The notes under the pieces were generated by a model. It did no database searches. It was not told the DNA's origin and was given only the letters and a program-made list of their open reading frames with translations. DNA of 64,000 nt from Gemmatimonadales bacterium (lineage in GTDB: Bacteria; Gemmatimonadota; Gemmatimonadetes; Gemmatimonadales; GWC2-71-9): contig JBBCJC010000001.1 in NCBI GenBank assembly GCA_037189525.1, forward strand, positions 672,001 to 736,000. Reading direction: 5' to 3'. The position numbers and the translations under genes were made by a program. How positions within the stretch are numbered: the first letter of the stretch is position 1; each line of letters begins with the position of its first letter. Below, piece after piece: positions 3,051 through 63,922 of this stretch.

Positions 3051-3206
3051 ATCCCGTTTCCTTTGACCGAAGTGGCCCGGGAGATGCCCCTGTCCCCGAA
3101 ACGTGCACAGCCCGCCTGCCTGTGAGTCCTGCCGCGGTCCCGCGGCGGTAACGCCGAGGTCACGCCGCGTCGGTATCGTGCCCCATATTCGTTGGGAGGA
3201 TTATGG

Positions 3207-3845
3207 ATGATGAGACAGCATATGGCTCGAGCCGGCGCGCTGGTGATCCTCGCCGCGGCCACCTGGACGGCCGGCGCCGCCGCCCAGACGCCCCGCGCCT
3301 GGTCTCCGGGCATCGGGATAAACCTCAACACGGCGCTCGGCCGTGAGGACGCGCCGTGGGGTCCCGGCGTGACCGTCGATCTGCTGCGTCGCTCCGGCCG
3401 GTTCGCCTTCGGGATCGAGGCCGGCTATCAATCGTTTGGTACGCAGGTGAGTCGGGTCGACGACTTCAATAATCAGCCGGGCTGGGTCTACCACGAGGAA
3501 TTCCGCCGCTCATGGTACCGCGCGGCGGCGATTGCCCGAATCGAGTTTGGCACCGCGCCGGTGCGTCCGTACCTGATCGGTGGCGGCGGTCCGTACGACG
3601 GCCACTATCGCGATCGCATCGAAGTCCGCGACGACAACGGCCAGCGCGTGCCGTTCTACGATTTCGAGGGCTCCGGCAGCGACGTCAAAGTCGGGGCCAC
3701 CGCGGGAGCCGGCCTAACGTTCGCGCGGCTCCGCGGGGGGATGCGTCTCGCACTCGAGGGTCGCTGGCACGGAATCTTCGACGTCACGGAAGACGGCTTC
3801 GGTACCGCCGACTTCCTCTCGGTGGGCCTGTCGCTGCGCTGGTAG
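3207..3845 (+). CDS. Putative outer-membrane beta-barrel protein
   Basis: GGGAGG RBS before ATG 3207; signal peptide ending AAAQ; amphipathic strands (VRPYLIGGGG, LALEGRWH); terminal VGLSLRW. Confidence 0.7.
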   Translation: MMRQHMARAGALVILAAATWTAGAAAQTPRAWSPGIGINLNTALGREDAPWGPGVTVDLLRRSGRFAFGIEAGYQSFGTQVSRVDDFNNQPGWVYHEEFRRSWYRAAAIARIEFGTAPVRPYLIGGGGPYDGHYRDRIEVRDDNGQRVPFYDFEGSGSDVKVGATAGAGLTFARLRGGMRLALEGRWHGIFDVTEDGFGTADFLSVGLSLRW

Positions 3846-3900: not shown

Positions 3901-5517
3901 TCAGCCTGGCATGGAGGACGGACTTCCGGAATCGCCCCACCCCGCCAGCAGGACCTGCAGCAGGCGATCGCTCTCCCCGACCGCCACCGGCTCGGTTTCC
4001 TCCTCGTCCTCCGGCTCGGCCGTCGACAGAAATGCCGGCACCTGAGGCGGGGGAGGGGTCGGAGGCTCGGGCCGCTCGAACAACCGGATCCGCGGCGGAT
4101 CCTTGGGCATGATGTTCTGATCCGGATCGAAATACGGATTGGGATCGAACAGATTGCGGAACGGCGGGTCGAACCGGTAGTTCGGCACCCGGGCAATCAC
4201 CGGCTGGTCGCCGCTGATCTGGAGGATCATCTCGTGATTCTCCAAATCGATGATGGCGTCGGGCGACCCGAATCCCGTCAGTTCGTGGAGCTCGGTGGCA
4301 GCCAGCGAGTTGAACGCCCCGAAGCACTGCAGCACCTGGCAGTTGTTCACCATGGTCTGCCAGTCCGACGGATAGAGCAACCGAAGCTGGCTCAGGTCCT
4401 GCCAGAAGCTCCAGGTGCGCAGACCGTAGCCGCGCAGCAGCGTGATGGCCTGCCGGAGCTGCGGCAGCGTGCCGAGCTGGGCCGCTTCATCGAGCAGGAA
4501 CAGCGTGGCCTGTTTGGCCCGGCGCCGCCGCCGCGTAATCGCCATCATCAGCGCCGCAATCCAGAGCCGCAGCAACTTGCCGTGGCTCTCGAGCATATGG
4601 GGCGGGACCACGATGTAGATCGAGAGTGGCTTGCCTAACGTAATGTCGTCGAGATCGAAGGTCGTTTCCCGGATGGCGTGCTGGACCAGCGGACCCCGCA
4701 GAAAATCGACGCCGTCCTGGGCCACCGCTACGATCGACCCGCGGGTTTCCGTGGCACCGACCGCCAACGATTGCGCCACGGCCCTGACCTCGGGATGCAC
4801 CGAGCCGCGCATCGCCTCGACCAGTTTGTCCGGGTCGCCGGAACTCAACCCGATCAAGTTCCGCACCGTGGTCAGGTTGCGCTCTTCAACGGGATAGTCC
4901 GCGATGGTGTGGAGAATCACCCCGAAGAGGAGGTGGGTCGCCCGCTCGTACCAGAACCGGTTCTTCTCATCCTGCCGATGATCGATCAGGATCTTGGCCA
5001 GCGCCGCCGCTTCGTCGACCGTCGTCGCCGAGGTGGGGTCGAGCATGTCGAGCGGATTGAGCGCGGCGGCCGGCTGATCGGTCACGCCGATCGGGTCGAG
5101 CACGATGACCTCGTGTCCCAATTCGCGCCGCCGCCGGGCCGTGATCGCCACGTTCTCGCCCTTCGGATCGATCGCGATGATCGGCCCTTCGTATCGCAGC
5201 AGCGCCGGGATGATACAGCCTACACCTTTGCCAGCCCCGGTGGGCGCAACCGTGATCAGGTGGCCATCGGTCTCCATCAGGATCGGATCGATGTATCCCG
5301 ATCGTGGCGTTCGCTCCGTGTCGCCGGCTCCGAACCCCATCGGGCGGCGCCCCCGCTCCATTTCGAGCGACCAGCCGATCAGCAGGCCCGGCGTTCCCAA
5401 CTCATCCGGCATCTTGAGGGTGGCCACCGGCATCTGCCGCCGCGAGCCCGCTCCGCTGCCGTCCCGCTCCGCCATCGTTGCCCAGGTATCGGGCAACCGT
5501 CGTCCGTCCGGGCTCAT
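3901..5517 (-). CDS. VirD4/TraG-like type IV coupling-protein ATPase, no obvious TM segment
   Basis: Walker A APTGAGKG, IDPKGE, LNPLDML, FWYERA, Walker B LFLLDEAAQLG, RGYGLRTWSFWQDLSQL; Pro/acidic tail; GGAG RBS. Confidence 0.9.
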   Translation of the reverse strand: MSPDGRRLPDTWATMAERDGSGAGSRRQMPVATLKMPDELGTPGLLIGWSLEMERGRRPMGFGAGDTERTPRSGYIDPILMETDGHLITVAPTGAGKGVGCIIPALLRYEGPIIAIDPKGENVAITARRRRELGHEVIVLDPIGVTDQPAAALNPLDMLDPTSATTVDEAAALAKILIDHRQDEKNRFWYERATHLLFGVILHTIADYPVEERNLTTVRNLIGLSSGDPDKLVEAMRGSVHPEVRAVAQSLAVGATETRGSIVAVAQDGVDFLRGPLVQHAIRETTFDLDDITLGKPLSIYIVVPPHMLESHGKLLRLWIAALMMAITRRRRRAKQATLFLLDEAAQLGTLPQLRQAITLLRGYGLRTWSFWQDLSQLRLLYPSDWQTMVNNCQVLQCFGAFNSLAATELHELTGFGSPDAIIDLENHEMILQISGDQPVIARVPNYRFDPPFRNLFDPNPYFDPDQNIMPKDPPRIRLFERPEPPTPPPPQVPAFLSTAEPEDEEETEPVAVGESDRLLQVLLAGWGDSGSPSSMPG

Positions 5518-5532
5518 CTCACGGCTCCATCG

Positions 5533-6258
5533 TTAGGCATCATACGTTTCGGCCTCGACGATCCTGAAGGGCGGACGAAAGAGTTCGCGACGGACCGGCA
5601 GGCGGGCCACCGGCTCGTCGTCGATCATGGTGATGCTGCCGGTCGACTGGATGGCAAACTTGGCCTGGAAGAGGCTGCCGCCATACAGCACCGACCCGTG
5701 GCCGATATAGGAGTCCTGCACGGCGAGCACCCCGGCCTCCCGGAGCGACTCGGACACCGCAAGGACCTTGGCGCGGGCGGCCGCGTCCTCACCCGGCAGC
5801 AGATCGAACTTCGTCTCGACGATCTGAAATCGTCCCTCTTCGCCATGGATGGCGCTACAGAAGAACCGCAGGTAATCGAGCGCCACCGCCGACTCCTTGA
5901 TCACCAGCGCCCCGGTGCCGTTCAAATCATGGATTGGGGCGGAGCTGCCGTCGATGGTGGTGATCCCGCCAGGTCCGTACAGAAACGCCAGCAATCCGGC
6001 CACTCCGTCTGGCAGTATGACCTGCACCTCCGCCAGAATCCACCCCGGATAGAACCGCGGCCGCATGGCCCGAACTCTGACGGGCCAATGCTCCGTGAAC
6101 AGGCGCCGCTGTCGATCCGACTCCGCCTTCTGCCCATAGCGGATCAGCAGCGGGACGGCCTCGGCCACGGCCAAGTCACGCCAGTCCCCGACGATGAGTG
6201 GCGGCGCCACCCACTCGTCGGGAACCGCCGGGGGTGTTACGACTTCCGGAACGCTCAC
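5533..6258 (-). CDS. Hypothetical protein (241 aa) coupled to the VirD4-like gene
   Basis: GTG start overlaps the upstream stop (GTGA); 15 nt from the VirD4 start; globular sequence with motif-like DGSSAPIHDLN and YLRFFCSAIHGEEGRFQIVE. Confidence 0.8.
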   Translation of the reverse strand: MSVPEVVTPPAVPDEWVAPPLIVGDWRDLAVAEAVPLLIRYGQKAESDRQRRLFTEHWPVRVRAMRPRFYPGWILAEVQVILPDGVAGLLAFLYGPGGITTIDGSSAPIHDLNGTGALVIKESAVALDYLRFFCSAIHGEEGRFQIVETKFDLLPGEDAAARAKVLAVSESLREAGVLAVQDSYIGHGSVLYGGSLFQAKFAIQSTGSITMIDDEPVARLPVRRELFRPPFRIVEAETYDA

Positions 6259-9829: not shown

Positions 9830-10168
9830 ATGGCTCCCGACTCCAAGCGCGACCTCCTTCCCGGCACGCTCGACATGCTGATTCTCAAGACCCTGACCGC
9901 GCAGTCGATGCACGGCTATGGGATCGCCCAGCACATCCAGCGGCTCTCGCAGGACGTGCTCAAGGTCGAGGAAGGGTCGCTCTACCCGGCGCTGCAGCGG
10001 ATGCGGCAGAAGGGCTGGATCAAGGCCGAGTGGGGGGTGACGCCCAACAACCAGCGGGCGCGGTACTACACCGTTACCACCGCGGGTCGCCGGCAACTCG
10101 GCGAGCAGGAGACCGGCTTTGCCGACCTGGTGGCCGCCATCGCACGGGTGATGAAACCGGTCCAATGA
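9830..10168 (+). CDS. PadR-family regulator (acidobacterial ADOP-associated type)
   Basis: LLPGTLDMLILKTL, HGYGIAQ, VEEGSLYPAL, NNQRARYY. Confidence 0.95.
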   Translation: MAPDSKRDLLPGTLDMLILKTLTAQSMHGYGIAQHIQRLSQDVLKVEEGSLYPALQRMRQKGWIKAEWGVTPNNQRARYYTVTTAGRRQLGEQETGFADLVAAIARVMKPVQ

Positions 10169-12831
10169 ACTTCCGCGAACTGCTCGCCAAGCTGCGCGAC
10201 TGGCGCTCACGCGACCGGCTCGATGCCGAGCTGGCGGAGGAGCTCCGTTTCCACCAGGAGCAGCTCGCACGCGACGGCGGGGCGACCGCCGTTCGCCGGC
10301 TCGGTAACCTGACCCGTCTCAAGGAAGGAACCCGCGACATGTGGTCGATCCGCTGGCTCGATCAGCTCGGACAGGACGTCCGCTACGCGTTGCGAGGGCT
10401 CAGGCGCTCGCCCGGGTTCACCGCCACCGTCGTTCTGACTCTGGGTCTCGGCATCGGCGCCAACGCCGCGATGTTCGGTGTGGTGGACCGGCTGATGTTC
10501 CGGCCTCATGCCTACTTGCGCGATCCGGAGACGGTGCATCGGGTCTACCTGCGCAGCACGGATCGGGGCACCGTGCGTACCAACTCGAACCTCGAGTATG
10601 CTCGGGCCCTTGATCTCCAGAAATGGACATCGTCGTTCTCCCAGTACGCCGGCTTCACGGATCGGACCTTGGCCGTCGGCGTCGGCGAGGCCTCCCGCGA
10701 GCGGCGCGTGGCGCTCGTCAACGCCTCGTTCTTCGATTTCTTCGATGCCCGGCCGGCGCTGGGCCGGTACTTCACGCCGAGTGAAGACAGCATCCCACGC
10801 GGAGCGGACGTAGCGGTGCTCGGCTACGGCTACTGGACCTCGGAGTTCGGCGGCCGCGACGTGATCGGCGATGTCCTCCAGGTGGGCAACATCGCGGCCA
10901 CGATCATCGGCGTCGCCCCCAAGGGTTTCAGCGGGGTGGGCGACAACGACCCTCCCGCGATCTACCTCCCGATCACCACCTACGCCGGTTCCTCGGGTAG
11001 CGCACGCAACCGGACCACCTACTACAGCCGGTACAATTGGAGCTGGATGGAGCTGATGGTGCGCCGGAAGCCGGGCGTCACCGCTCCGCAGGCATCGTCG
11101 GACCTGACCCAGGCATATATCCGGAGCTGGCACGCCGAGCACGAGAGCGACCCGCTCCCGCCGGTCGACGTCGCGAAGCCGGAGGCCATAGCGGGGGCGA
11201 TGAAGCTCGGCGCCGGCCCGGACCCCGGCCTCGAGGCTCGGACCGCGCTGTGGGTAACCGGTGTCGCCGCGGTCGTGCTGCTGATCGCCTGCGCCAACGT
11301 GATCAATCTGTTCCTGGCCCGAGCTCTCCAACGCCAGCGGGAGTTGGCCGTCCGCATGGCGCTCGGCGTGAGCCGCGGTCGCTTGCTGCGGCAGTCGTTG
11401 ACGGAAAGCCTGCTGTTATCGGGCATCGGCGCAATCGTCGGTCTCCTGGTGGCGCAGTGGGGCGGTGCAGCCATCCGCAGCATGCTGATCACCGGCCAGG
11501 GAGCAGCACTCGACGTCTTCACCGACTGGCGGACGCTCGGCGTGGCGGCGGCCGTCGCGATCGGCACGGCGCTGCTGACCGGGTTGGCTCCGGCGCTGCT
11601 CGCCGGACGCGGCAGCCTGGTCGACTCGCTCAAGACAGGCACTCGTGACGGCACTGCCCGCCGGTCGAAGGCTCGGACGGCATTGCTCGTTGCGCAGGGA
11701 GCGCTCACCGTCGTCCTCCTGGTGGGGGCCGGACTGTTCGTGCGCAGCCTCGACCGGGTCACGTCGATGCGACTCGGCTACGACGCCGACAAGGTCCTCC
11801 TGGCGGCCACCAACATGCGAGGTATGGCTCTCGACGACAGCGGCTCCGCCCGTCTCGGCCGGACTCTGGTAGAGACGGCCCAAAACATCCAGGGTGTCGA
11901 GGCCGCCAGTTGGGTGAGCAGCGTCCCGTTCTACAGCACCGAGTCCACCAGCCTCTACGTCACCGGGATCGACTCGGTCCGGCGGCTCGGAAGCTTCACC
12001 TATCAGTCCGCCACTACCGACTATTTCGAGGCAATGGGTACCCGAATCATTCGGGGCCGAGGGTTCAGCCCGGAGGATCGCGCCGGCGCCCCGCCGATCG
12101 TGGTGGTGAGCGAGGCCATGGCCAATGTCCTCTGGCCCGGCAAGGATGCTCTAGGCGAGTGCATCCGGATCGGCGCGGATACGATGCCCTGCTCGACCGT
12201 GGTCGGGATCGCGGAAGACATGGTGCAGCAGAGCCTCGGCGATGCACAGCGCTTCCACTACTACCTGCCCATCGAGCAACGGAATGCCGCCGGGGGCTTC
12301 GCGCTGCTGCTCCGGATGCGAAACGATCCGGAAGCTTCGCAGGAAACGGTGCGGCAGGCGCTGCAGCAGGTCATGCCGGGCCAGTCGTACATCACCGTCC
12401 GACCCTTGGAGCGCCTGGTCGAGAGCCAACGCCGCTCGTGGCGGCTCGGAGCCACGATGTTCGTGGCATTCGGTGTCCTGGCGCTAGTGGTGGCAGCCGT
12501 CGGACTCTACGGGGTGATCGCCTACAACGTCAACCAGCGGATGCACGAGCTGGGAATCCGGGTGGCGTTAGGCGCCCGTTCTCCCGACGTGATGCGATTG
12601 GTTCTGGCACAGGGAGTCAAAGTGTCCATCGCAGGGGCAGTGATCGGATTGGCACTCGCGCTCGCCGCCGCGGGGCTCGTCGAGCCGCTCCTATTCCGCC
12701 AATCGGCGCGCGATCCGATGGTCTACGGCAGCGTGGGATTGCTGCTCCTTTCGGTGGCGATGCTGGCGAGCGCGGTGCCGGCGCGGCGCGCTACCAAGGC
12801 GGACCCCAACGCAGTCCTGCGGAACGACTGA
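10165..12831 (+). CDS. ADOP-family duplicated MacB/FtsX-type ABC permease 1
   Basis: ATGA overlap with padR; ELRFH prefix domain, DVRYALRGLRRSPGF, LLIACANV, ELGIRVALGA, PARRATKADP. Confidence 0.93.
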   Translation: MNFRELLAKLRDWRSRDRLDAELAEELRFHQEQLARDGGATAVRRLGNLTRLKEGTRDMWSIRWLDQLGQDVRYALRGLRRSPGFTATVVLTLGLGIGANAAMFGVVDRLMFRPHAYLRDPETVHRVYLRSTDRGTVRTNSNLEYARALDLQKWTSSFSQYAGFTDRTLAVGVGEASRERRVALVNASFFDFFDARPALGRYFTPSEDSIPRGADVAVLGYGYWTSEFGGRDVIGDVLQVGNIAATIIGVAPKGFSGVGDNDPPAIYLPITTYAGSSGSARNRTTYYSRYNWSWMELMVRRKPGVTAPQASSDLTQAYIRSWHAEHESDPLPPVDVAKPEAIAGAMKLGAGPDPGLEARTALWVTGVAAVVLLIACANVINLFLARALQRQRELAVRMALGVSRGRLLRQSLTESLLLSGIGAIVGLLVAQWGGAAIRSMLITGQGAALDVFTDWRTLGVAAAVAIGTALLTGLAPALLAGRGSLVDSLKTGTRDGTARRSKARTALLVAQGALTVVLLVGAGLFVRSLDRVTSMRLGYDADKVLLAATNMRGMALDDSGSARLGRTLVETAQNIQGVEAASWVSSVPFYSTESTSLYVTGIDSVRRLGSFTYQSATTDYFEAMGTRIIRGRGFSPEDRAGAPPIVVVSEAMANVLWPGKDALGECIRIGADTMPCSTVVGIAEDMVQQSLGDAQRFHYYLPIEQRNAAGGFALLLRMRNDPEASQETVRQALQQVMPGQSYITVRPLERLVESQRRSWRLGATMFVAFGVLALVVAAVGLYGVIAYNVNQRMHELGIRVALGARSPDVMRLVLAQGVKVSIAGAVIGLALALAAAGLVEPLLFRQSARDPMVYGSVGLLLLSVAMLASAVPARRATKADPNAVLRND

Positions 12832-12832
12832 G

Positions 12833-15502
12833 ATGCGAGAGTGGCTGGCCCGGCTCCGCGACCGATTTCGCCGCGAACAACTCGACGCCGAGCTGACGGA
12901 CGAGCTCCGCTTTCATCAGGACCAGCTGGAGCGCGACGGTGGCCCGGCGGCCTCTCGCCGGCTGGGCAACCTGACTCGTCTCAAGGAAAGCACGCGCGAT
13001 ATGTGGAGCATCCGCTGGCTCGACGACCTGCTGCAGGACATCCGGTACGCTTTGCGCGGCCTCCGTCGCTCGCCCGGGTTCGCGGCGACCGTCATCCTCA
13101 CCCTCGGGCTCGGCATCGGCGCCAACGCCGCGATGTTCGGGGTGATCGACCGGCTGATGTTCCGGCCCTATCCCTACCTGCGCGATCCCGCCACGGTGGA
13201 TCGGGTCTATCTACGGCTCACCGGCCGCGACCAGGCCACCGCCACCTCGGTGAGCTTCCCGTATACCCGCTACCTCGATCTGCAGCGCTGGACTTCGTCT
13301 TTCTCCGAATCCGCGGCGTTCGTAGCGGCGCGCCACGCGATCGGGAGCGGTGAAGACGCGCGCGAGCATCCGGTTTACGGGGTGAGCGCCTCCTTCTTCG
13401 ATTTCTTCGATGCGCGACCTGCGGCAGGCCGGTTCTTCGGGCCGGCCGAGGATGCACTGCCGACGGGCACCGACGTCGCAGTGCTGGGCCACCGATTCTG
13501 GCAAGCGGAGCTCGGTGGCCGGAACGTACTGGGCGAAACGATCCAGATCGGTTCGGCGCGCTACACGGTCGTCGGTGTGGCGCCGCCGGGCTTCGTGGGC
13601 GTGGCGCAGACGCGCGATCCGGCCGTCTTCATCCCAATCACGGCCTACGCCGCCCACGAAGGTTGGGGCGAACCGACCGACCATCATCATAAGTACACCT
13701 GGGACTGGACCGAGATGATGGTCCGCCGTAAGCCGGGCATCGATCGCGACCAGGCGACGACGGATCTGACGGCGGCGTTCGTCCGGAGCCGAATTGCGGC
13801 ACGCGCGGTCCACCCAACCTTCGCGCAGGTCGAACGCGCCAATCCCCGCGCGATCGCCGGACCGCTACAGACGGCGGCCGGGCCGGATGCCGGCCTCGAG
13901 ATGCGCACCCTGCTCTGGGTCGCGGGTGTCGCCGCAATCGTGCTGGTGATCGCCTGCGCCAACGTGGCCAACCTCTACCTGGCGCGCGCGGTGGGCCGGC
14001 GCCGGGAGCTCGCGCTGCGCCTCGCATTGGGCGTGAGCCGCGGACGCCTCGTCCGCCAGGCACTCACCGAGAGCCTGCTCCTCTCACTGCTCGGCTGCGC
14101 CGCCGGCCTGCTTGCCGCGCAATGGGCCGGCATCGGACTCCGGCGGCTGTTCCTGCCGTTCGCGAGCTCGTTCGAGGTGGTGACCGACTGGCGCACGCTT
14201 GGTCTCGCCAGCGCGGCCGCGCTGCTGGCAGCCGTAGCCACAGGGGTCGCTCCCGTGCTGTTCGCCAGGCGAGAGGCGCCCGCCGGCCGGCTCATGTCGG
14301 GTAGCCGCGCCGGCCCGGCAGATCGGTCGCGCGCCCGATCGATGCTCCTGGTGGCGCAAGCGGCGCTTTCCGTCCTCCTGCTGGTGGGCGCTGGCCTCTT
14401 CGTGCGCAGCCTGGTACGGGTCCAGGCGCTCCCGGCCGGCTTCGACCCCGAACCGGTGCTGCTGATGGTCTGGGAACGGCGCGGTTCCGCGGCGAGCGCG
14501 GACGAACGCATCGCAATCCGCGATCATATCCTCGACGTAGCTCACCGCCTTCCCGCCGTCGAGGCGGCGGCCTGGGTATCGACCGTGCCGATGCAGGGTA
14601 CCTCGACCTTCGGACTCGCGGTGCCGGGCATCGACTCGGTCACGCGCCTCGGCCGGTTCAACTATCAGATCGCCTCGCCCCGGTATTTCGACGTCGTAAA
14701 GACCCGCATCCTCCGCGGCCGGGCCTTTACCGACGCCGACCGGGCCGGCAGCCCGCCGGTCGTAGTGGTGAGTGCCGCGATGGCGCAGACCTTGTGGCCC
14801 GGCCGCGATCCGCTCGGCCAGTGCATCCGGGTGGGCTGGATGAACCGGCCGCCCGAGACGATGCCCTGCACCGCCGTGATCGGGGTCGCCGAGGATGCGC
14901 TCCAGGACCCGTTGGCGGAGCGCACCCTGCGCTACTACCTGCCGCAGGCCCAGCTCGACGAAGGCGGCTGGCAGCTCGCGCTCCGCATCCGGGGCGACGC
15001 CCGCGCCGAGGCGGAGGGTATCCGGCGGGCGCTCCAGCGTGAGCTGCCCGACCTGTCCTACCTCTACGTGCAGGCAATGGGCGACATGTACACGCAGCGC
15101 CACCGCTCCTGGCGAATGGGTGCCACGATGTTCCTCGCCTTCGGCGCGCTGGCGCTGGTGGTGGCCGCGGTCGGCCTCTACGGCGTAATGGGATACGACG
15201 TGGCGCAGCGGATGCATGAGCTGGGCGTCCGGACTGCGCTCGGCGCGCAGCGCGCGAACCTGGTTGCCCTGGTGCTCCGGCGCGCACTCAAGTTCACTCT
15301 CGCCGGTGTGGCAGTGGGCCTCGTTCTGGCGCTGCTCTTCTCCGGGTGGGTGGAGCCGCTCCTGTTCCGGCAATCGGCGCGCGATCCTCTCGTGTACGGC
15401 GGTGTCGGCGCGGTGCTGATCCTGGTGGCCCTCGTCGCCACTGCCGTGCCGACTCTGCGCGCGACGCGGGCGGACCCCAACATCGCACTGCGGAGCGAGT
15501 GA
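12833..15502 (+). CDS. ADOP-family permease 2
   Basis: Same architecture; LVIACANVANL, ELGVRTALGA, RATRADPNIALRSE. Confidence 0.93.
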   Translation: MREWLARLRDRFRREQLDAELTDELRFHQDQLERDGGPAASRRLGNLTRLKESTRDMWSIRWLDDLLQDIRYALRGLRRSPGFAATVILTLGLGIGANAAMFGVIDRLMFRPYPYLRDPATVDRVYLRLTGRDQATATSVSFPYTRYLDLQRWTSSFSESAAFVAARHAIGSGEDAREHPVYGVSASFFDFFDARPAAGRFFGPAEDALPTGTDVAVLGHRFWQAELGGRNVLGETIQIGSARYTVVGVAPPGFVGVAQTRDPAVFIPITAYAAHEGWGEPTDHHHKYTWDWTEMMVRRKPGIDRDQATTDLTAAFVRSRIAARAVHPTFAQVERANPRAIAGPLQTAAGPDAGLEMRTLLWVAGVAAIVLVIACANVANLYLARAVGRRRELALRLALGVSRGRLVRQALTESLLLSLLGCAAGLLAAQWAGIGLRRLFLPFASSFEVVTDWRTLGLASAAALLAAVATGVAPVLFARREAPAGRLMSGSRAGPADRSRARSMLLVAQAALSVLLLVGAGLFVRSLVRVQALPAGFDPEPVLLMVWERRGSAASADERIAIRDHILDVAHRLPAVEAAAWVSTVPMQGTSTFGLAVPGIDSVTRLGRFNYQIASPRYFDVVKTRILRGRAFTDADRAGSPPVVVVSAAMAQTLWPGRDPLGQCIRVGWMNRPPETMPCTAVIGVAEDALQDPLAERTLRYYLPQAQLDEGGWQLALRIRGDARAEAEGIRRALQRELPDLSYLYVQAMGDMYTQRHRSWRMGATMFLAFGALALVVAAVGLYGVMGYDVAQRMHELGVRTALGAQRANLVALVLRRALKFTLAGVAVGLVLALLFSGWVEPLLFRQSARDPLVYGGVGAVLILVALVATAVPTLRATRADPNIALRSE

Positions 15503-15503
15503 G

Positions 15504-18140
15504 ATGCGCGAATGGCTCGCCCGGCTCCGCGACCGATTCCGTCGTGACCAGCTCGATGCCGAGCTGGCGGATGAACTCCGGTTTCACCGTGAACAGCTGG
15601 AGCGGGACGGCGGTGCGACTGCCGTCCGCCGTCTCGGCAACCTGACCCGCGTCAAGGAGAATACCCGCGATATGTGGTCGATTCGCTGGCTCGATCAGCT
15701 TGGACGGGATGTCCGATACGCGCTGCGCGGTTTCCGCCGTGCTCCAGGGTTCACCGCTGCCGCGGTACTCACTCTCGCGCTCGGTGTCGGAGCTACCACG
15801 GCGATCTTCAGTATCGTGAACGGCGTTCTGATCCGCCCGCTTCCCTACCCGAACGCGAGCCGAGCCCTCCTCATCTGGAGCGGCGACCGGCGAACGCCGG
15901 AGACGAAGTTCCCCATCAGCCTCGCCAATCTGGTCGACATCCGGGAAGAAAGCCGCTCGCTCGAGCGAATCGCCGGGTTCCGCAGTTGGAACCATACGCT
16001 GGCCGAGCATGGCGACCCCGAGCAGATCTCGAGTGCCCTGGTCCTGCCCGGCCTCTTCGAGATCCTGGGCGTGCGGACAGCCCTTGGCCGGACCTTCATA
16101 GCAGAAGAGGAGCGGACGGGTGGTAGTGCCATCATCAGCGATCGGCTCTGGCGCAACCGCTTCGGCGCCGACCCCGCCATCATCGGGCGTTCCATCCAGC
16201 TGAGTGGCGTCCCGACGACGATCGTGGGTGTGATGCCGCCCGGCTTCCACTTTCCGCGCGGTGCCGAGCTGCCGTCGGGCCTGCGGTTCGGCCGGCGGAC
16301 CGACGTGTGGACGCCGCTCGTCGTCGATTCGATGGAGCTGTCGCTCCGCGGTCTCCAGAACCTCGCCGCGATCGCGGCGCCTACGCGCGGTCAGAACGCG
16401 GGTACGGTCACCGCCGACCTCGATCTCGTGGCGCGAGCGCTCATCGAGCGATATCCGGGCCTCGACCCCAACGGCACGTACACGGCCGAGTCGCTGCTGG
16501 AAACCGCGGTGGCGCCGGTTCGACCTGCCCTGCTGGTGCTGTTGGGCGCGGTAGGTTTCCTGCTCCTGATCGCTTGCGTCAACGTGTCCAGCCTGCTTCT
16601 GACGCGGGCCGAGGCGCGGCGGCGGGAAATCGCGGTCCGGGCCGCGATCGGCGCAGCAAGCGGCCGGCTCGCGCGGCAGTTCCTGACCGAGAACCTCGTC
16701 CTGACCGCGATCGGCGGCGGGCTTGGGGCGCTCATCGCAATGCTGACTCGCCAGGCCTTGCTGGCGCTCGCGCCGATCGACCTGCCACGCTTCGACGACA
16801 TCGTGCTCGACTGGCGCGTCTTCACCGGCATCATCGTGCTGGTGGTCGTGATCGGCGCCTCGCTCGGCACACTGGTTCTGGCCGAGACCGGTCGCGTGGA
16901 TCATGGCGCGCTCTTGCGCGAGGGCACTCGGGGTAGTGACGGACCGGGTCGCCATCGCGCCCGAAGCGGGTTGGTGGTGCTCCAGGTTGCCGTGTCGATG
17001 GTACTCCTCGCCGGCGCCGCGCTCCTGGGCCAGACGCTCCGCAACCTCCAGCATCAGAACCCGGGGTTCAACCCGGACCGGGTACTCACCGCCAAACCGA
17101 TCCTGCCGGTCACCACCACGGATATCGGGCAGATTCTCCGACTCATGCCCACCTGGGGACGGTTCTATCAGCAGGCCATCGACGAGGTCGCCGACCGGCC
17201 CGGTGTAGTCAGTGCCGCCGCAGTCTCCGCGCTGCCGTTGAGCGGCGCCCAGGAGTCGAGCAGCTTCATCATCGCAGGCCGGCCGCCGCTCGAGCCGGGA
17301 CAGCAGCAGAACGCGCTCTTCGCCGGCGTCTCGAATCGGTACTTTCAGACGATGGGCATTCCACTCGTCCGCGGACGAGTGTTCGAAGCAAGCGACCGGG
17401 ACTCCTCGGCGGCGACCGTCGTCATCAGCGAGTCCATGGCGCGCACCTACTGGCCCGGTGAGGATCCGCTGGGTTCCCGGATCCAGAGCTGGCTTGGCCG
17501 GAGCTTCGAAGTCGTAGGTGTCGTGGGCGATGTGCGACACCGGGGCATGATGGCCCCGCCGCAACCGATGATGTACGTCCCTCTGTCGACCTACAGCTCG
17601 GCAGCCATGACGATGATCGTGCGGAGCCAGGCCGGAGAGAGGGTCACCGCCGGGCTCATCCGCGAGGTGATTCGCGGTCTCGATCCGTCGGCCCCGGTCA
17701 CCGAAGTCGTGCCGATGGATGAGATCGTGGCGGAGTCGATGGCGCAGCAGCGTTTCAGCACGCTCCTGCTGGGCAGCTTCGGCATTGCCGCGGTAGCGCT
17801 GGCGGTGCTGGGCCTCTATGGGGTGATCAGCTATGGCGTGGCGCAGCGCGCCAAGGAACTGGGCATCCGGCTCGCGCTGGGTGCGGCGCCAAGCACCGTA
17901 CGCCGGCTGGTGATGCGCGAGGGCATGACGCTGGCTGCGACCGGGGTCGCGATCGGTCTGGTCGCCGCCATCCTACTGGGCCGGACGTTGACCACGTTGG
18001 TGTTCGGCGTGAGCCCGACGGATGCAGCCACGCTAGCCGGCGTAACGGCGCTCCTCGTCGTGGTGGCCGCCGTGGCGACGTTCATCCCCGCTCGGCGCGC
18101 AACTAGGATCGACGTGGTCACAGTCTTGCGGGAGGAATAG
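15504..18140 (+). CDS. ADOP-family permease 3 (different subfamily)
   Basis: GATTAIFSIVNGVLIRPLPY, LLIACVNV, ELGIRLALGA, PARRATRID. Confidence 0.93.
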   Translation: MREWLARLRDRFRRDQLDAELADELRFHREQLERDGGATAVRRLGNLTRVKENTRDMWSIRWLDQLGRDVRYALRGFRRAPGFTAAAVLTLALGVGATTAIFSIVNGVLIRPLPYPNASRALLIWSGDRRTPETKFPISLANLVDIREESRSLERIAGFRSWNHTLAEHGDPEQISSALVLPGLFEILGVRTALGRTFIAEEERTGGSAIISDRLWRNRFGADPAIIGRSIQLSGVPTTIVGVMPPGFHFPRGAELPSGLRFGRRTDVWTPLVVDSMELSLRGLQNLAAIAAPTRGQNAGTVTADLDLVARALIERYPGLDPNGTYTAESLLETAVAPVRPALLVLLGAVGFLLLIACVNVSSLLLTRAEARRREIAVRAAIGAASGRLARQFLTENLVLTAIGGGLGALIAMLTRQALLALAPIDLPRFDDIVLDWRVFTGIIVLVVVIGASLGTLVLAETGRVDHGALLREGTRGSDGPGRHRARSGLVVLQVAVSMVLLAGAALLGQTLRNLQHQNPGFNPDRVLTAKPILPVTTTDIGQILRLMPTWGRFYQQAIDEVADRPGVVSAAAVSALPLSGAQESSSFIIAGRPPLEPGQQQNALFAGVSNRYFQTMGIPLVRGRVFEASDRDSSAATVVISESMARTYWPGEDPLGSRIQSWLGRSFEVVGVVGDVRHRGMMAPPQPMMYVPLSTYSSAAMTMIVRSQAGERVTAGLIREVIRGLDPSAPVTEVVPMDEIVAESMAQQRFSTLLLGSFGIAAVALAVLGLYGVISYGVAQRAKELGIRLALGAAPSTVRRLVMREGMTLAATGVAIGLVAAILLGRTLTTLVFGVSPTDAATLAGVTALLVVVAAVATFIPARRATRIDVVTVLREE

Positions 18141-21055: not shown

Positions 21056-21451
21056 CTACCTCAGTCGGACGAGTCCCGGCATGCGGTCGAAGTCGGCGTC
21101 GAACGACATGACCCGAGTCACCCGGTGACGCTCCATCACCGCGACATGAAGCGCGTCGCGGGCACGGAGCGCGGGTCGACCCAGCACGATCGTCTTGGCA
21201 CGCTCGACATCGGCCAGAGTGATATCGAAAACCTGGTCGACCACGCCCGACAGCGCATCGAATGCTGGTTGGATCGCGTCTCGGCGCTCGAGCGCGGTAT
21301 AGCGGTGCAGGATCTCCTGGAAGACCTCGACGCTGGTCACCAGCTTTTCCCGATCGGTGATGGCGCGCTCCAGGATCCGCTGCGCGTCCACCTTGAGCGG
21401 GTGATCCGCTCCGACCAGATACATCGGAATGTTCGAGTCGACAAAGATCAT
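21056..21451 (-). CDS. vapC: VapC PIN-domain toxin
   Basis: [35 protein letters not shown]. Confidence 0.92.
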
Positions 21452-39478: not shown

Positions 39479-39763
39479 CTATCGCTTCGACACCTGCTCC
39501 CGATAGACCTCGAGCACGCGCTTCATGAGGCGTTGATACCCTCCCTTTCCCGCATGCTGCTTGTACCAGGCAAGGGTGTCCTGGGCCAGCCGGATCGAGA
39601 TGGCTTTGGTGGGCTCGACGAGGCGGACCGTCGACCAGTCGATATCATCTGGAATATCCGGGTCTCGCACTGCCTCGATCTCCTCGTCCGTCATGGCATC
39701 GAGTCGAGCGCGATCGACCCGCCCCAAGCCTGGACCGACCCGCGTCCTACGAACCTTGTGCAT
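39479..39763 (-). CDS. brnA: BrnA-family antitoxin
   Basis: LDAMTDEEI..DPD; ISIRLAQDTLAWYK...GYQRLM; overlaps brnT. Confidence 0.85.
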   Translation of the reverse strand: MHKVRRTRVGPGLGRVDRARLDAMTDEEIEAVRDPDIPDDIDWSTVRLVEPTKAISIRLAQDTLAWYKQHAGKGGYQRLMKRVLEVYREQVSKR

Positions 39764-40013
39764 ACAGTGTGCGCTCCTTGCGTGTACTGAGGCGAGCAGA
39801 AATGATCCGCCGCGCTGTGTCGCGATCCGTATACACCACGGTCAGCGCTCGACCATCGACCATACCCACGGCGACCATCCGTACCTCGCCGTATTCCCGC
39901 GGGTACTCCCACTCGACCGTCGGCCCGAGAAAAATGCGGACTGCGAAGCCGAAGTCGAAGCCACGCTTCTGGAGGCACCGCTCGGACTTGTCGGGGTCGT
40001 ATTCGACGATCAT
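39747..40013 (-). CDS. brnT: BrnT-family toxin
   Basis: EYDPDK...GFDF, YGEVR..AVG, VVYTDR...RIISAR...ER..Y. Confidence 0.9.
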   Translation of the reverse strand: MIVEYDPDKSERCLQKRGFDFGFAVRIFLGPTVEWEYPREYGEVRMVAVGMVDGRALTVVYTDRDTARRIISARLSTRKERTLYAQGS

Positions 40014-61567: not shown

Positions 61568-63922
61568 TTGCCGCTGATCGAAGACGAATGGCTTTGGGGC
61601 TGGGATCCGACTCCCGGCATCGTCTCCGTCTGGGCGCAATCGGATGGTCGGGCGACGATTTGGCGGCGAATCCCCGCAACCGGCGTGCTGGTGCGCGAAG
61701 AAACCCGGTTCCGGCCCTGGCTCCTCATCGACCGCCTCGACGACCTCGAACATTTGGGTACCGATCTCGGCCCGGAAGGGTCAACGGCGCTGGTTACCTG
61801 GCGCGAGTTGAACGGACCGGGCGCGCTCCGCTTCCAGGTGTCCGCCCCGAAAGGCGAGATCCTTACTACCGCTCTGCTCCGCGGGGCCAGCGCCCGCCTC
61901 GGCCGAAGCATCAGCCACCTGCGCAGTCTCGACCGAAATTCTTATCTCGCCCTTTCGCCCGAGGACCAGTATCTCACCGCCACCGGTCGCACCTATTTCC
62001 GCGACCTGTCCTTCGATGCGCTGCATCGGCTCCAGTTCGACCTCGAGACGACCGGCCTCGACCCAAATCGCCACCGCATCTTCATGATCGCGGTGCGCGA
62101 CCCGGCCGGAACGACCCATATCCTCGAAGCCGACGGCGATGACGACGCAGCGGAAGCCGACCTGCTCAGCCGCCTGGTGGGCATGATTCAGGCGGCTGAT
62201 CCCGACGTGATCGAGAACCACAATCTCCACGGCTTCGACCTCCCCTTCCTCGACCGCCGAGCACGCCGGCTCGGCGTGACTCTCTCGCTGGGCCGGATCG
62301 GGCGTGGAGGTCTTCGACCGCGCGCCGCGCGGCGCGGTGATCGCGGGGCCGACGGCCGCACGGTTCGCCTGATCGTGCCGGGGCGGGAACTGATCGATAC
62401 CCTCGATGCGGTACGCCGGCACGACTTCGCCACCCGCGATTTTCCGGGTCACGGCCTCAAAGCCGTCGCACGCCACCTGGGCATCGCCGAGCCGGATCGG
62501 GAACTGATTCCCGGGGCGGAGATCTATCAGGTTTTTCGGACTGATCCCGACCGGGTACGTCGCTATGCGGGGTCCGACGTCACCGAGGTGGCCGCTCTGG
62601 CCCGGATGCTGGGAGGCGCGGCGTTCGCGCTGGCCCGGATGGCCCCGAGACGATACGAACGTCTGGCCGATGCCGGCGCAGCAACCGGGGTGATCGACCC
62701 GCTCCTGGTTCGCGCCTACCTGCGGTCGGGAACGGCGCTTCCGGCCCACCAGCCGGGTGACGGTACCCCGCACAGTGGAGCGGCGCTCTACCTCTTTGCC
62801 ACCGGGGTCGCGCACCGGGTCGTCAAGGCCGACGTGGCCAGCCTGTATCCATCCCTGATGCGCGCCTATCGGATCGGGCCGAACCGGGATCACCTGGGAG
62901 TCCTGGTCTCACTGGTCGACCGGCTGGTGGAGCAGCGTCTCGCGGCCAAGGCGGCTGCGCGGGCAGCGCCAGCCGGTTCCTCCGAGCGGTATACCCACGA
63001 AGCCGTGTCCGCGGCCATGAAACTGGTCGTCAACACCGCTTACGGCTATCTCGCGGCGGGCGGCGACCTGACCCGGTTTGCCGATGTCCACGCCGCCAAC
63101 GAGGTCACCCGGCGCGGACGCGAGACCCTGGCCCTGATGTGCCGAGAACTGGCCGATCGCGGTGTGACGCTGCTGGAAGCCGATACGGACGGGGTGTACT
63201 TCGCCGTTCCCGACAGCTGGACCGAGGCGGACGAACGCCGAGTGGTGGGCGAAGTCGCGGCACTGCTGCCGGCGCTGGTCCAGTTGGAGTTCGACGGCCG
63301 CTATGCCGCCATGCTCTCGCACGAACCGAAGAATTACGCGCTGCTCGAACATACCGGCCGACTGACGCTGCGTGGCGTCGCGTTTCGCTCCAGTCGCAAC
63401 GAGCCCTTTGCCGACAGCTTTCTCCGTCAGGCCATCGGTGCGCTGCTCACCGGGGACATTCCCGGGGTTCGCCAGGCGTATCTCGATGCCGTGGCTGCGC
63501 TTCGCCGCCGCGAGCTGCCCACCAGCCAGGTGGCCTCTCTGGTTCGCCTCACCAAAACCCCGGACCAATATCGGGAAACCCGGGACGGGCGAAAAGAACT
63601 GCCCTACGAAGCGCTCCTGGCCAGCGGAAGGACAACGTGGCGGCGGGGCGAACGGGTCCGGATCTACCGGGTTCGCCACGGCGGGGCCCGGCTGGCCCCC
63701 GACCGGGATGGCAGCGGGGACCGGCCCGAACAGCGCGACTACGACATCGACCACTATCTCCGGCTGCTGCGCGAGCAGTACGCGGCCCGGCTGGCTCGGG
63801 CGCTGTCGCCGGACGACTTTGCGGCCGTCTTTGCCGACCCGGAGCAGCCCTCCCTCTTTACCCCCGCCTTGGACACCATCCGCCCGATCCTGACGACCCT
63901 CTCGTCACCTCGAATCGTCTGA
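61568..63922 (+). CDS. Family B DNA polymerase with 3'-5' exonuclease domain
   Basis: ExoI FDLETTG, ExoII NHNLHGFDLPFL, ExoIII YAGSD; polymerase motifs DVASLYPS, KLVVNTAYGY, EADTDGVYF, KNYAL; TTG start. Confidence 0.93.
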   Translation: MPLIEDEWLWGWDPTPGIVSVWAQSDGRATIWRRIPATGVLVREETRFRPWLLIDRLDDLEHLGTDLGPEGSTALVTWRELNGPGALRFQVSAPKGEILTTALLRGASARLGRSISHLRSLDRNSYLALSPEDQYLTATGRTYFRDLSFDALHRLQFDLETTGLDPNRHRIFMIAVRDPAGTTHILEADGDDDAAEADLLSRLVGMIQAADPDVIENHNLHGFDLPFLDRRARRLGVTLSLGRIGRGGLRPRAARRGDRGADGRTVRLIVPGRELIDTLDAVRRHDFATRDFPGHGLKAVARHLGIAEPDRELIPGAEIYQVFRTDPDRVRRYAGSDVTEVAALARMLGGAAFALARMAPRRYERLADAGAATGVIDPLLVRAYLRSGTALPAHQPGDGTPHSGAALYLFATGVAHRVVKADVASLYPSLMRAYRIGPNRDHLGVLVSLVDRLVEQRLAAKAAARAAPAGSSERYTHEAVSAAMKLVVNTAYGYLAAGGDLTRFADVHAANEVTRRGRETLALMCRELADRGVTLLEADTDGVYFAVPDSWTEADERRVVGEVAALLPALVQLEFDGRYAAMLSHEPKNYALLEHTGRLTLRGVAFRSSRNEPFADSFLRQAIGALLTGDIPGVRQAYLDAVAALRRRELPTSQVASLVRLTKTPDQYRETRDGRKELPYEALLASGRTTWRRGERVRIYRVRHGGARLAPDRDGSGDRPEQRDYDIDHYLRLLREQYAARLARALSPDDFAAVFADPEQPSLFTPALDTIRPILTTLSSPRIV

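Follow-up and report, generated by a model that had tools for sequence, protein, structure and literature searches.

Two adjacent genes at positions 3901 to 6258 of a 64,000-nucleotide stretch of DNA from a Gemmatimonadales bacterium (the window, taken at its full length) encode a soluble ATPase of the VirD4/TraG type and, upstream of it, a 241-residue protein of no named family, which we call U. The module that they form is real and conserved, apparently undescribed, and on our reading a variant of the NTPase-centred conflict systems. The co-inheritance of the two genes, their immune-like company at other loci and the absence of a secretion machine suggest a new defence or signalling use of a DNA-transfer motor. 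We think it probable that the pair is a conflict core working outside secretion, and put at about even the chance that an anchor-less type IV coupling protein (T4CP) and U, its dedicated partner and recognition subunit, together form a conflict (anti-invader) core that works in the cytoplasm. No paper on the pair or on the U domain was found in a literature search covering mostly open-access main texts; supplementary domain tables could list U.

The ATPase combines a RecA-like nucleotide-binding domain, carrying Walker A and B motifs, with an all-alpha domain, as T4CPs do. The predicted local distance difference test score (pLDDT) of its model is 73 overall and 80–95 in the core. The best fold matches are Cag-beta (8dol, E 8e-19) and TrwB (1e9s, E 1e-14). 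The TM-scores of T4CPs, taken over the entire query, are 0.52–0.60; DotL ranks 39th, and HerA antiphage complexes stand below Cag-beta, with fold E values of about 1e-8. The sequence falls under the cut-off of all eight NCBIfam families that it matches (TraG, VirD4, CD1115 and TraD types), the best score being 131 bits against a cut-off of 674 and another 124 against 250. Canonical VirD4 has two N-terminal membrane helices (PMC6536674). The highest 19-residue hydropathy in the first 100 residues of the ATPase is 0.61, in a test in which a canonical VirD4 control gave two peaks, of 2.5 and 2.0, and none of the 120 top homologues reaches 1.6 ahead of Walker A. All 120 share a soluble form of 484–581 residues. 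The place of the membrane helices is occupied by a family-specific motif (residues 44–52), which is modelled with low confidence (pLDDT below 50). At the other end, residues 481–516, with ten prolines and ten Asp or Glu, form a variable linker that precedes a terminal helix, residues 517–527, a candidate docking motif. A profile of this helix scores at least 5 bits in 22 of 52 U-linked ATPases and in none of 18 U-less ones; the profile was built from the U-linked clade, and the contrast is essentially one of clade against clade. To judge from its intact motifs and predicted fold, the protein is a type IV coupling protein minus the membrane anchor. An earlier note on this DNA, made from its letters alone, had described a 538-residue VirD4/TraG-type ATPase with intact Walker motifs, no hydrophobic N-terminal helices and a Pro/acidic tail; all of this stands, although the note missed the conserved terminal helix.

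The same note had recognised no virB, relaxase or integrase gene in the 64 kb, and among the 51 window proteins scanned the ATPase is indeed the sole transfer-type gene, with no match to such families. The genome is 98% complete and contains one PF02534 gene. It yielded no match to the VirB4-type families PF03135 and PF19044 or to the four relaxase families tested (PF03432, PF08751, PF03389 and PF07514), and a single sub-threshold match to VirB10 (PF03743). No DotN-like gene was found in it either, the one weak match being an HNH-type protein; type IVB homologues were searched for in this genome only. The ATPase lacks a membrane anchor, a cognate channel or relaxase of the families tested, and a score above an NCBIfam cut-off, all of which are marks of a T4CP. 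In the 50 of 60 U-linked genomes that were tested, many of them incomplete metagenome-assembled genomes, VirB4 (PF03135) was found in 15 and not in the other 35.

U starts at a GTG codon which overlaps the stop codon of the amidohydrolase gene before it; the ATPase gene follows after 15 nucleotides, the distance given in the earlier note. The model of U consists of two helix-plus-sheet lobes. U has no match in Pfam (E ≤ 0.1), NCBIfam or PADLOC, none at E ≤ 10 among the sequences of the PDB and none at E ≤ 0.001 in fold searches of PDB and viral libraries; matches in the Atlas are to unnamed clusters only. With the whole of U as query, the best score against cystatin, NTF2, PepSY and BLIP-like folds was Z 5.5 (root-mean-square deviation 3.5 over 81 aligned residues), and none reached Z 8, a level of likeness that may reflect merely a common arrangement of elements. 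A search of 50,697 phage records did not find U, and no RNA record was listed as a carrier of it. As 277 non-redundant domains share no invariant catalytic set, the reading of U as an enzyme was not adopted; the most conserved polar columns are Asn (90%), Asp (89%), His (82%), Ser (81%) and Cys (70%). In PADLOC 2.0 the ATPase matches mad8 only (E 5e-6), and no single system covers both genes.

A genome scan of GTDB confirmed 323 relatives of the ATPase, and linkage was counted on the best 80 loci. U lies directly upstream on the same strand at 53 of these, is fused to the C-terminus of the ATPase at six and is divergent at one; it is absent at 16, and four are contigs that end too early to show it. 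Locus L037 (genome G179) counts as one genome in the 53 of 80 and in other totals given here (15 of 50, 28 of 50, 48 loci, 51 pairs, 52 tails), and none of our conclusions depends solely on it. The hosts of the 80 loci are Proteobacteria, Gemmatimonadota, Verrucomicrobia, Spirochaetes and Acidobacteria; the named close homologues are from Gemmatimonadales. On the tree of the ATPase, genes linked to U make up one clade, in which U has been lost once (L069/L071), and the fusions sit at two separate places. Distances of U and of ATPase correlate over 51 pairs (rho 0.56), as would be expected from linkage alone too, and the nearest neighbour is the same in 38 of the 51. Among 151 genomes of the window's family, ATPase and U occur in the same two, both of which also have a second U protein, and the pair occupies the same genomic site in this genome (G000), G048 and G151. 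Relative to locus L002, the ratio of non-synonymous to synonymous substitution (dN/dS) is 0.09 for the ATPase and 0.18 for U, with values of 0.06–0.14 for three neighbouring genes at similar dS. The pair is no remnant but an accessory module that is maintained, and both of its genes evolve under purifying selection. Close ATPase relatives are found on just three of 72,556 plasmids, all from Sinorhizobium. No GC anomaly was found at the locus, and a promoter and terminator scan there gave results at chance level. A co-fold of ATPase residues 28–492 with U residues 10–238, a construct lacking the terminal helix 517–527, returned 0.01, a value read neither as binding nor as its absence. The U-less sister clade of ATPases (L055–L078, L205) lies beside STAND-TPR, NYN and CARF genes and includes tandem ATPase doublets in L065, L073 and L078.

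Genes that recur around the pair encode nSTAND1-ankyrin-U giants, IcmJ/DotN-like proteins, patatin, TrkA-N/RyR proteins, SLATT proteins and proteins that we take to be SLOG-like, a family label for which there is no library match. With self-hits removed, a STAND, SLOG-like, TrkA-RyR, patatin or DotN-like neighbour is present at 15 of the 48 loci of at least 12 kb, and at 22 if seed loci, a small helical domain (see below) and extra U genes are counted; the controls gave none at 16 stand-alone-U loci and none in 214 windows of this genome. The IcmJ/DotN-like neighbours (7 of 60 loci) match NF038221 at E ~1e-19, below its cut-off. A complete island of Sinorhizobium meliloti pEm1132b (RS20310-RS20345) carries, in a row, genes for STAND-ankyrin-U, patatin, U, ATPase, SLOG-like, TPR and TrkA/RyR-like proteins. 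None of the immune-like types found at other loci occurs in the 64-kb window. This genome does encode a second U protein elsewhere (G000:C2:522746-527304; L162:8747-13305), of 1017 residues and predicted by eye to be a beta-solenoid, whose gene stop overlaps the start of a 503-residue membrane protein with three hydrophobic segments. Neither protein has a Pfam match. Conservation of the second U protein is about 75% in G048 and G151; no further genome of the family, among those searched, yielded it. In L021 and L127 the gene directly after that of the ATPase encodes a U-solenoid protein of similar type.

A profile search with U returned 2771 relatives at 50% identity clustering. In the top 148, the domain sits at the C-terminus of 65 proteins, at the N-terminus of six and at both ends of seven; in 22 it is internal, and 48 are stand-alone copies. 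Judged from these architectures, U is a mobile, promiscuous domain of about 200 residues. Its fusion partners are NLR-like STAND-ankyrin/TPR proteins, FtsH-like proteases, DotN-like proteins (P0288) and beta-solenoids. In the 74 long U proteins scanned, of 75 available, repeats were recognised in 41 (ankyrin in 26, TPR or Sel1 in 15), a STAND-type NTPase in at least 19, pentapeptide repeats in four and an AAA+ domain in three, two of them with an M41 protease; 23 have no recognised domain. U also stands as a separate gene directly after STAND-ankyrin genes in L036 and L152, and this split-or-fused pattern mirrors that of U with the ATPase. That U ties the ATPase to NLR-like proteins and membrane effectors had escaped the earlier note. 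In FtsH-like AAA+/M41 proteases at L136, L145, L148, L149, L151, L157 and L160, U is the N-terminal domain, to judge by domain layout in place of the usual membrane region. A helical domain of 60–70 residues recurs near pair loci, singly, as a double copy following DotN-like proteins, or in fusion with U (L010:7917-9176, L137:414-1283, L059:13087-13353 and P0187), and is possibly a second adaptor of the same network. Tandem stand-alone U genes alternate with DUF6782-type metallopeptidases in small alphaproteobacterial genomes (L176, L178–L180, L189, L202, L203 and L207).

How might such a pair work? Coupling proteins are hexamers that thread substrates recognised via the all-alpha domain (PMC9886983, PMC8740702, PMC6536674). 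In the explanation that we favour, a T4CP would have lost its membrane anchor and been recruited together with U, with no need of a secretion channel. From what is known of the family we expect the protein to assemble into an ATP-driven hexameric ring and to thread a macromolecule; having lost anchor and channel, such a ring could only remodel a cytoplasmic client. U, as putative recognition subunit, would dock on the all-alpha domain or on the terminal helix and engage a client or trigger, which the ring would then unfold or remodel, switching effectors on or off. That U loads the ring in this way, presenting client or trigger to it, is a tentative proposal, somewhat short of an even bet. The same U input could serve STAND-ankyrin/TPR proteins, FtsH-like proteases and beta-solenoid/membrane proteins, and the likeliest client in this genome would be the U-beta-solenoid and membrane-protein pair. 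A wider and rather doubtful extension is that U is a so far unrecognised plug-in domain for recognition in bacterial immunity. Through it a T4CP turned cytoplasmic unfoldase would be connected with membrane effectors, AAA+ proteases and NLR-like STAND proteins, and would arm or disarm immune effectors without secretion.

Several observations weigh against this interpretation. We infer a defence role solely from the company that the genes keep, yet 33 of the 48 long loci, this one included, have none of the immune-like neighbours tested, and the controls are lenient because the neighbour seeds were drawn from the same loci. Most U-less ATPases form a sister clade, whose genomes mostly lack U (it is present in 2 of 20, both on short contigs). 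No second U gene was seen at E ≤ 1e-5 in 28 of 50 pair genomes, in a search with a narrow profile in which many genomes were incomplete. U was found in 34 of 401 Alphaproteobacteria and the ATPase clade in at most five, one of these matches being a canonical membrane VirD4 and few candidates being scored per genome; most U copies would therefore work without the ATPase, and many small genomes contain U as a stand-alone gene, in one to three copies that lie next to DUF6782 metallopeptidases or amid core genes. U copies that share a locus do not resemble each other more than they resemble other copies (ranks 9–58 of 60 in the 12 cases scored, two being unscored). Because U is so much commoner than the ATPase and same-locus copies are not especially alike, it is evidently not a simple homotypic adaptor. 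Finally, some U proteins have signal-peptide-like starts, read by eye; signal-peptide-like or lipoprotein-like N-termini precede the fused domain in P0213, P0226, P0227, P0255 and P0274, and the domain may therefore also act outside the cytoplasm.

Other explanations deserve consideration. U could be a CagZ-like brake or sensor and the ATPase the output, which on release by an invader signal would oligomerise and act on DNA or drain ATP like HerA-type motors, making the two genes a self-sufficient system. Cag-beta, the best match by fold, is kept as a monomer by CagZ (PMC9886983), HerA antiphage complexes appear lower in the fold list, the lobes of U show a weak likeness to cystatin, PepSY and BLIP-like folds (Z at most 5.5), the linked U is the sole one seen in 28 of 50 genomes, and U often lies beside DUF6782 metallopeptidases. 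Permanent fusion at six of 80 loci and a terminal-domain role on many unrelated proteins would nevertheless be odd for a pure inhibitor, no nuclease or NADase is linked at this locus, and Z scores below 8 carry the reservation made above; we regard the brake as unlikely. Alternatively, apart from any defence, U could bind proteins or ligands in general, and the pair could be a cytoplasmic remodelling or stress-signalling motor. Such a role would suit the place of the pair within a row of housekeeping genes, a site shared by three genomes, the overlap of the start of U with an amidohydrolase stop, the stand-alone copies of U among core genes in many small alphaproteobacterial genomes and the N-terminal U of FtsH-like AAA+/M41 proteases. 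The distribution of the pair is very patchy (2 of 151 family genomes, scattered across several phyla), no metabolic neighbour is conserved and the recurrent neighbours are immune-like, which makes such a role quite unlikely.

The fold of the ATPase would also allow a detached coupling protein serving a type IV secretion system (T4SS) in trans, with DotN-like proteins (7 of 60 loci and the fusion P0288) as adaptors and U as a secretion signal, since U is C-terminal in 65 of the 148 top relatives, as XVIPCD is (PMC8740702), and VirB4 occurs in 15 of 50 pair genomes. Against it stand the lack of a PF03135 or PF19044 match in a 98%-complete genome with a sub-threshold VirB10 match, the 35 of 50 pair genomes without PF03135, the missing anchor, and clients of 1500–1800 residues with STAND domains that look like cytoplasmic sensors. 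Recruitment of substrates in trans, one of the suggestions of the earlier note, is accordingly disfavoured, and we consider it improbable. Decay of an integrative and conjugative element or plasmid, to which the family annotation (conjugative DNA transfer protein) might point, is largely refuted by the selection and linkage data and is scarcely credible: the dN/dS of the ATPase is low, every motif is intact, the 120 top homologues share the soluble form, no mobile genes lie nearby and close relatives are almost absent from plasmids. The two genes co-occur widely, the homologues do not lie in T4SS loci, and relaxed selection was not seen in either gene; both refuting conditions named in the earlier note thus fail. 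What survives of the domesticated two-gene module proposed in that note is a conserved pair under purifying selection that operates outside conjugation; U has turned out to be promiscuous as well, and mostly to occur without the ATPase.

Comparison with known systems places the pair apart from each of them. With VirD4, TrwB and Cag-beta the ATPase shares PF02534, the nucleotide-binding and all-alpha fold and the Walker motifs; it differs in having no N-terminal membrane helices and no VirB or relaxase genes, and in its own N-terminal motif, tail helix and constant partner. Cag-beta with CagZ likewise joins a VirD4-type ATPase to a small dedicated partner, but CagZ is specific to Helicobacter pylori and works inside a full T4SS (PMC9886983), whereas U is fused to many proteins and has no sequence or fold match to CagZ. 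The effector-associated domains of NTP-dependent conflict systems (PMC7159879) resemble U in being found at the ends of a core NTPase and of sensors or effectors, nearby or elsewhere in the genome; U is likewise a terminal fusion on its core NTPase as well as on distinct sensor or effector proteins. U differs in its size of about 200 residues, its two-lobed alpha/beta form, adjacent copies that are no more alike and its frequent occurrence without the core; extra U copies track the ATPase in the window's family of genomes but not in Alphaproteobacteria. The main text of PMC7159879 mentions neither VirD4 nor TraG, and the same is true of the main texts of PMC8195603 and 10.64898/2026.10.19.760177. 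XVIPCD of Xanthomonas T4SS effectors (PMC8740702) is also a VirD4-linked terminal domain on diverse proteins; U is larger, has no Pfam match at E ≤ 0.1 and no secretion channel, and is also N-terminal and stand-alone. HerA-type antiphage ATPases (SIR2-HerA, PADLOC mad8) are likewise soluble ring motors of the FtsK/HerA superfamily outside transfer, although the likeness is distant by fold and by mad8 score and there is no SIR2 or nuclease partner here. Legionella DotL, with its partner DotN, has a C-terminal extension as the ATPase does, and DotN-like neighbours occur at some pair loci, but the ATPase is of the VirD4 type, DotL ranks low by fold and this genome has no DotN-like gene.

Features of the ATPase–U pair (positions in the window)
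Feature	Position	Strand	Basis
U protein, 241 residues, stand-alone copy of unnamed two-lobed alpha/beta domain	5533..6258	-	model pLDDT 92
GGAG, ribosome-binding-like	5525..5528	-	within 15-nt spacer; 7 nt before ATPase ATG
Soluble VirD4/TraG-type (T4CP-fold) ATPase, 538 residues	3901..5517	-	PF02534 E 7.5e-57; fold match Cag-beta, TrwB
Family-specific N-terminal motif (residues 44-52)	5362..5388	-	G44, L46, W49, S50 invariant in alignment
Walker A (residues 91-98)	5224..5247	-	Lys in 119/120 homologues
Walker B (residues 341-344)	4486..4497	-	D343 and E344 invariant, 35 aligned sequences
Amphipathic terminal helix (residues 517-527), conserved	3937..3969	-	alignment; model helix 518-527

Flanking genes were considered as further members of the module and rejected. 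The syntenic loci L002 and L172 lack the convergent 217-residue gene at 3192-3845 (+), which is secreted-looking, has no family match and lies beside the ATPase in this genome only. The neighbourhood of the upstream M20 amidohydrolases is not conserved beyond the genus. Elsewhere in the window are a PadR gene followed by three tandem MacB/FtsX-type permeases (9830-18140; also in L002), a gene that resembles a divergent DNA polymerase of family B and scores weakly in Pfam (61568-63922, +), and a BrnT/BrnA toxin–antitoxin pair and a PIN-domain gene (39482-40013 and 21059-21451).

Cultured hosts that are non-pathogenic carry the pair (S. meliloti pEm1132b, Sphingopyxis panaciterrulae and Halomonas litopenaei), which makes the proposal directly testable. 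If it is correct, a type IV coupling protein has been diverted from secretion to immune or protein-remodelling work, which would account for a class of 'orphan VirD4' annotations. U itself represents a large unnamed domain family that ends many bacterial NLR-like proteins, and its ligand may reveal what these receptors detect or how they reset.
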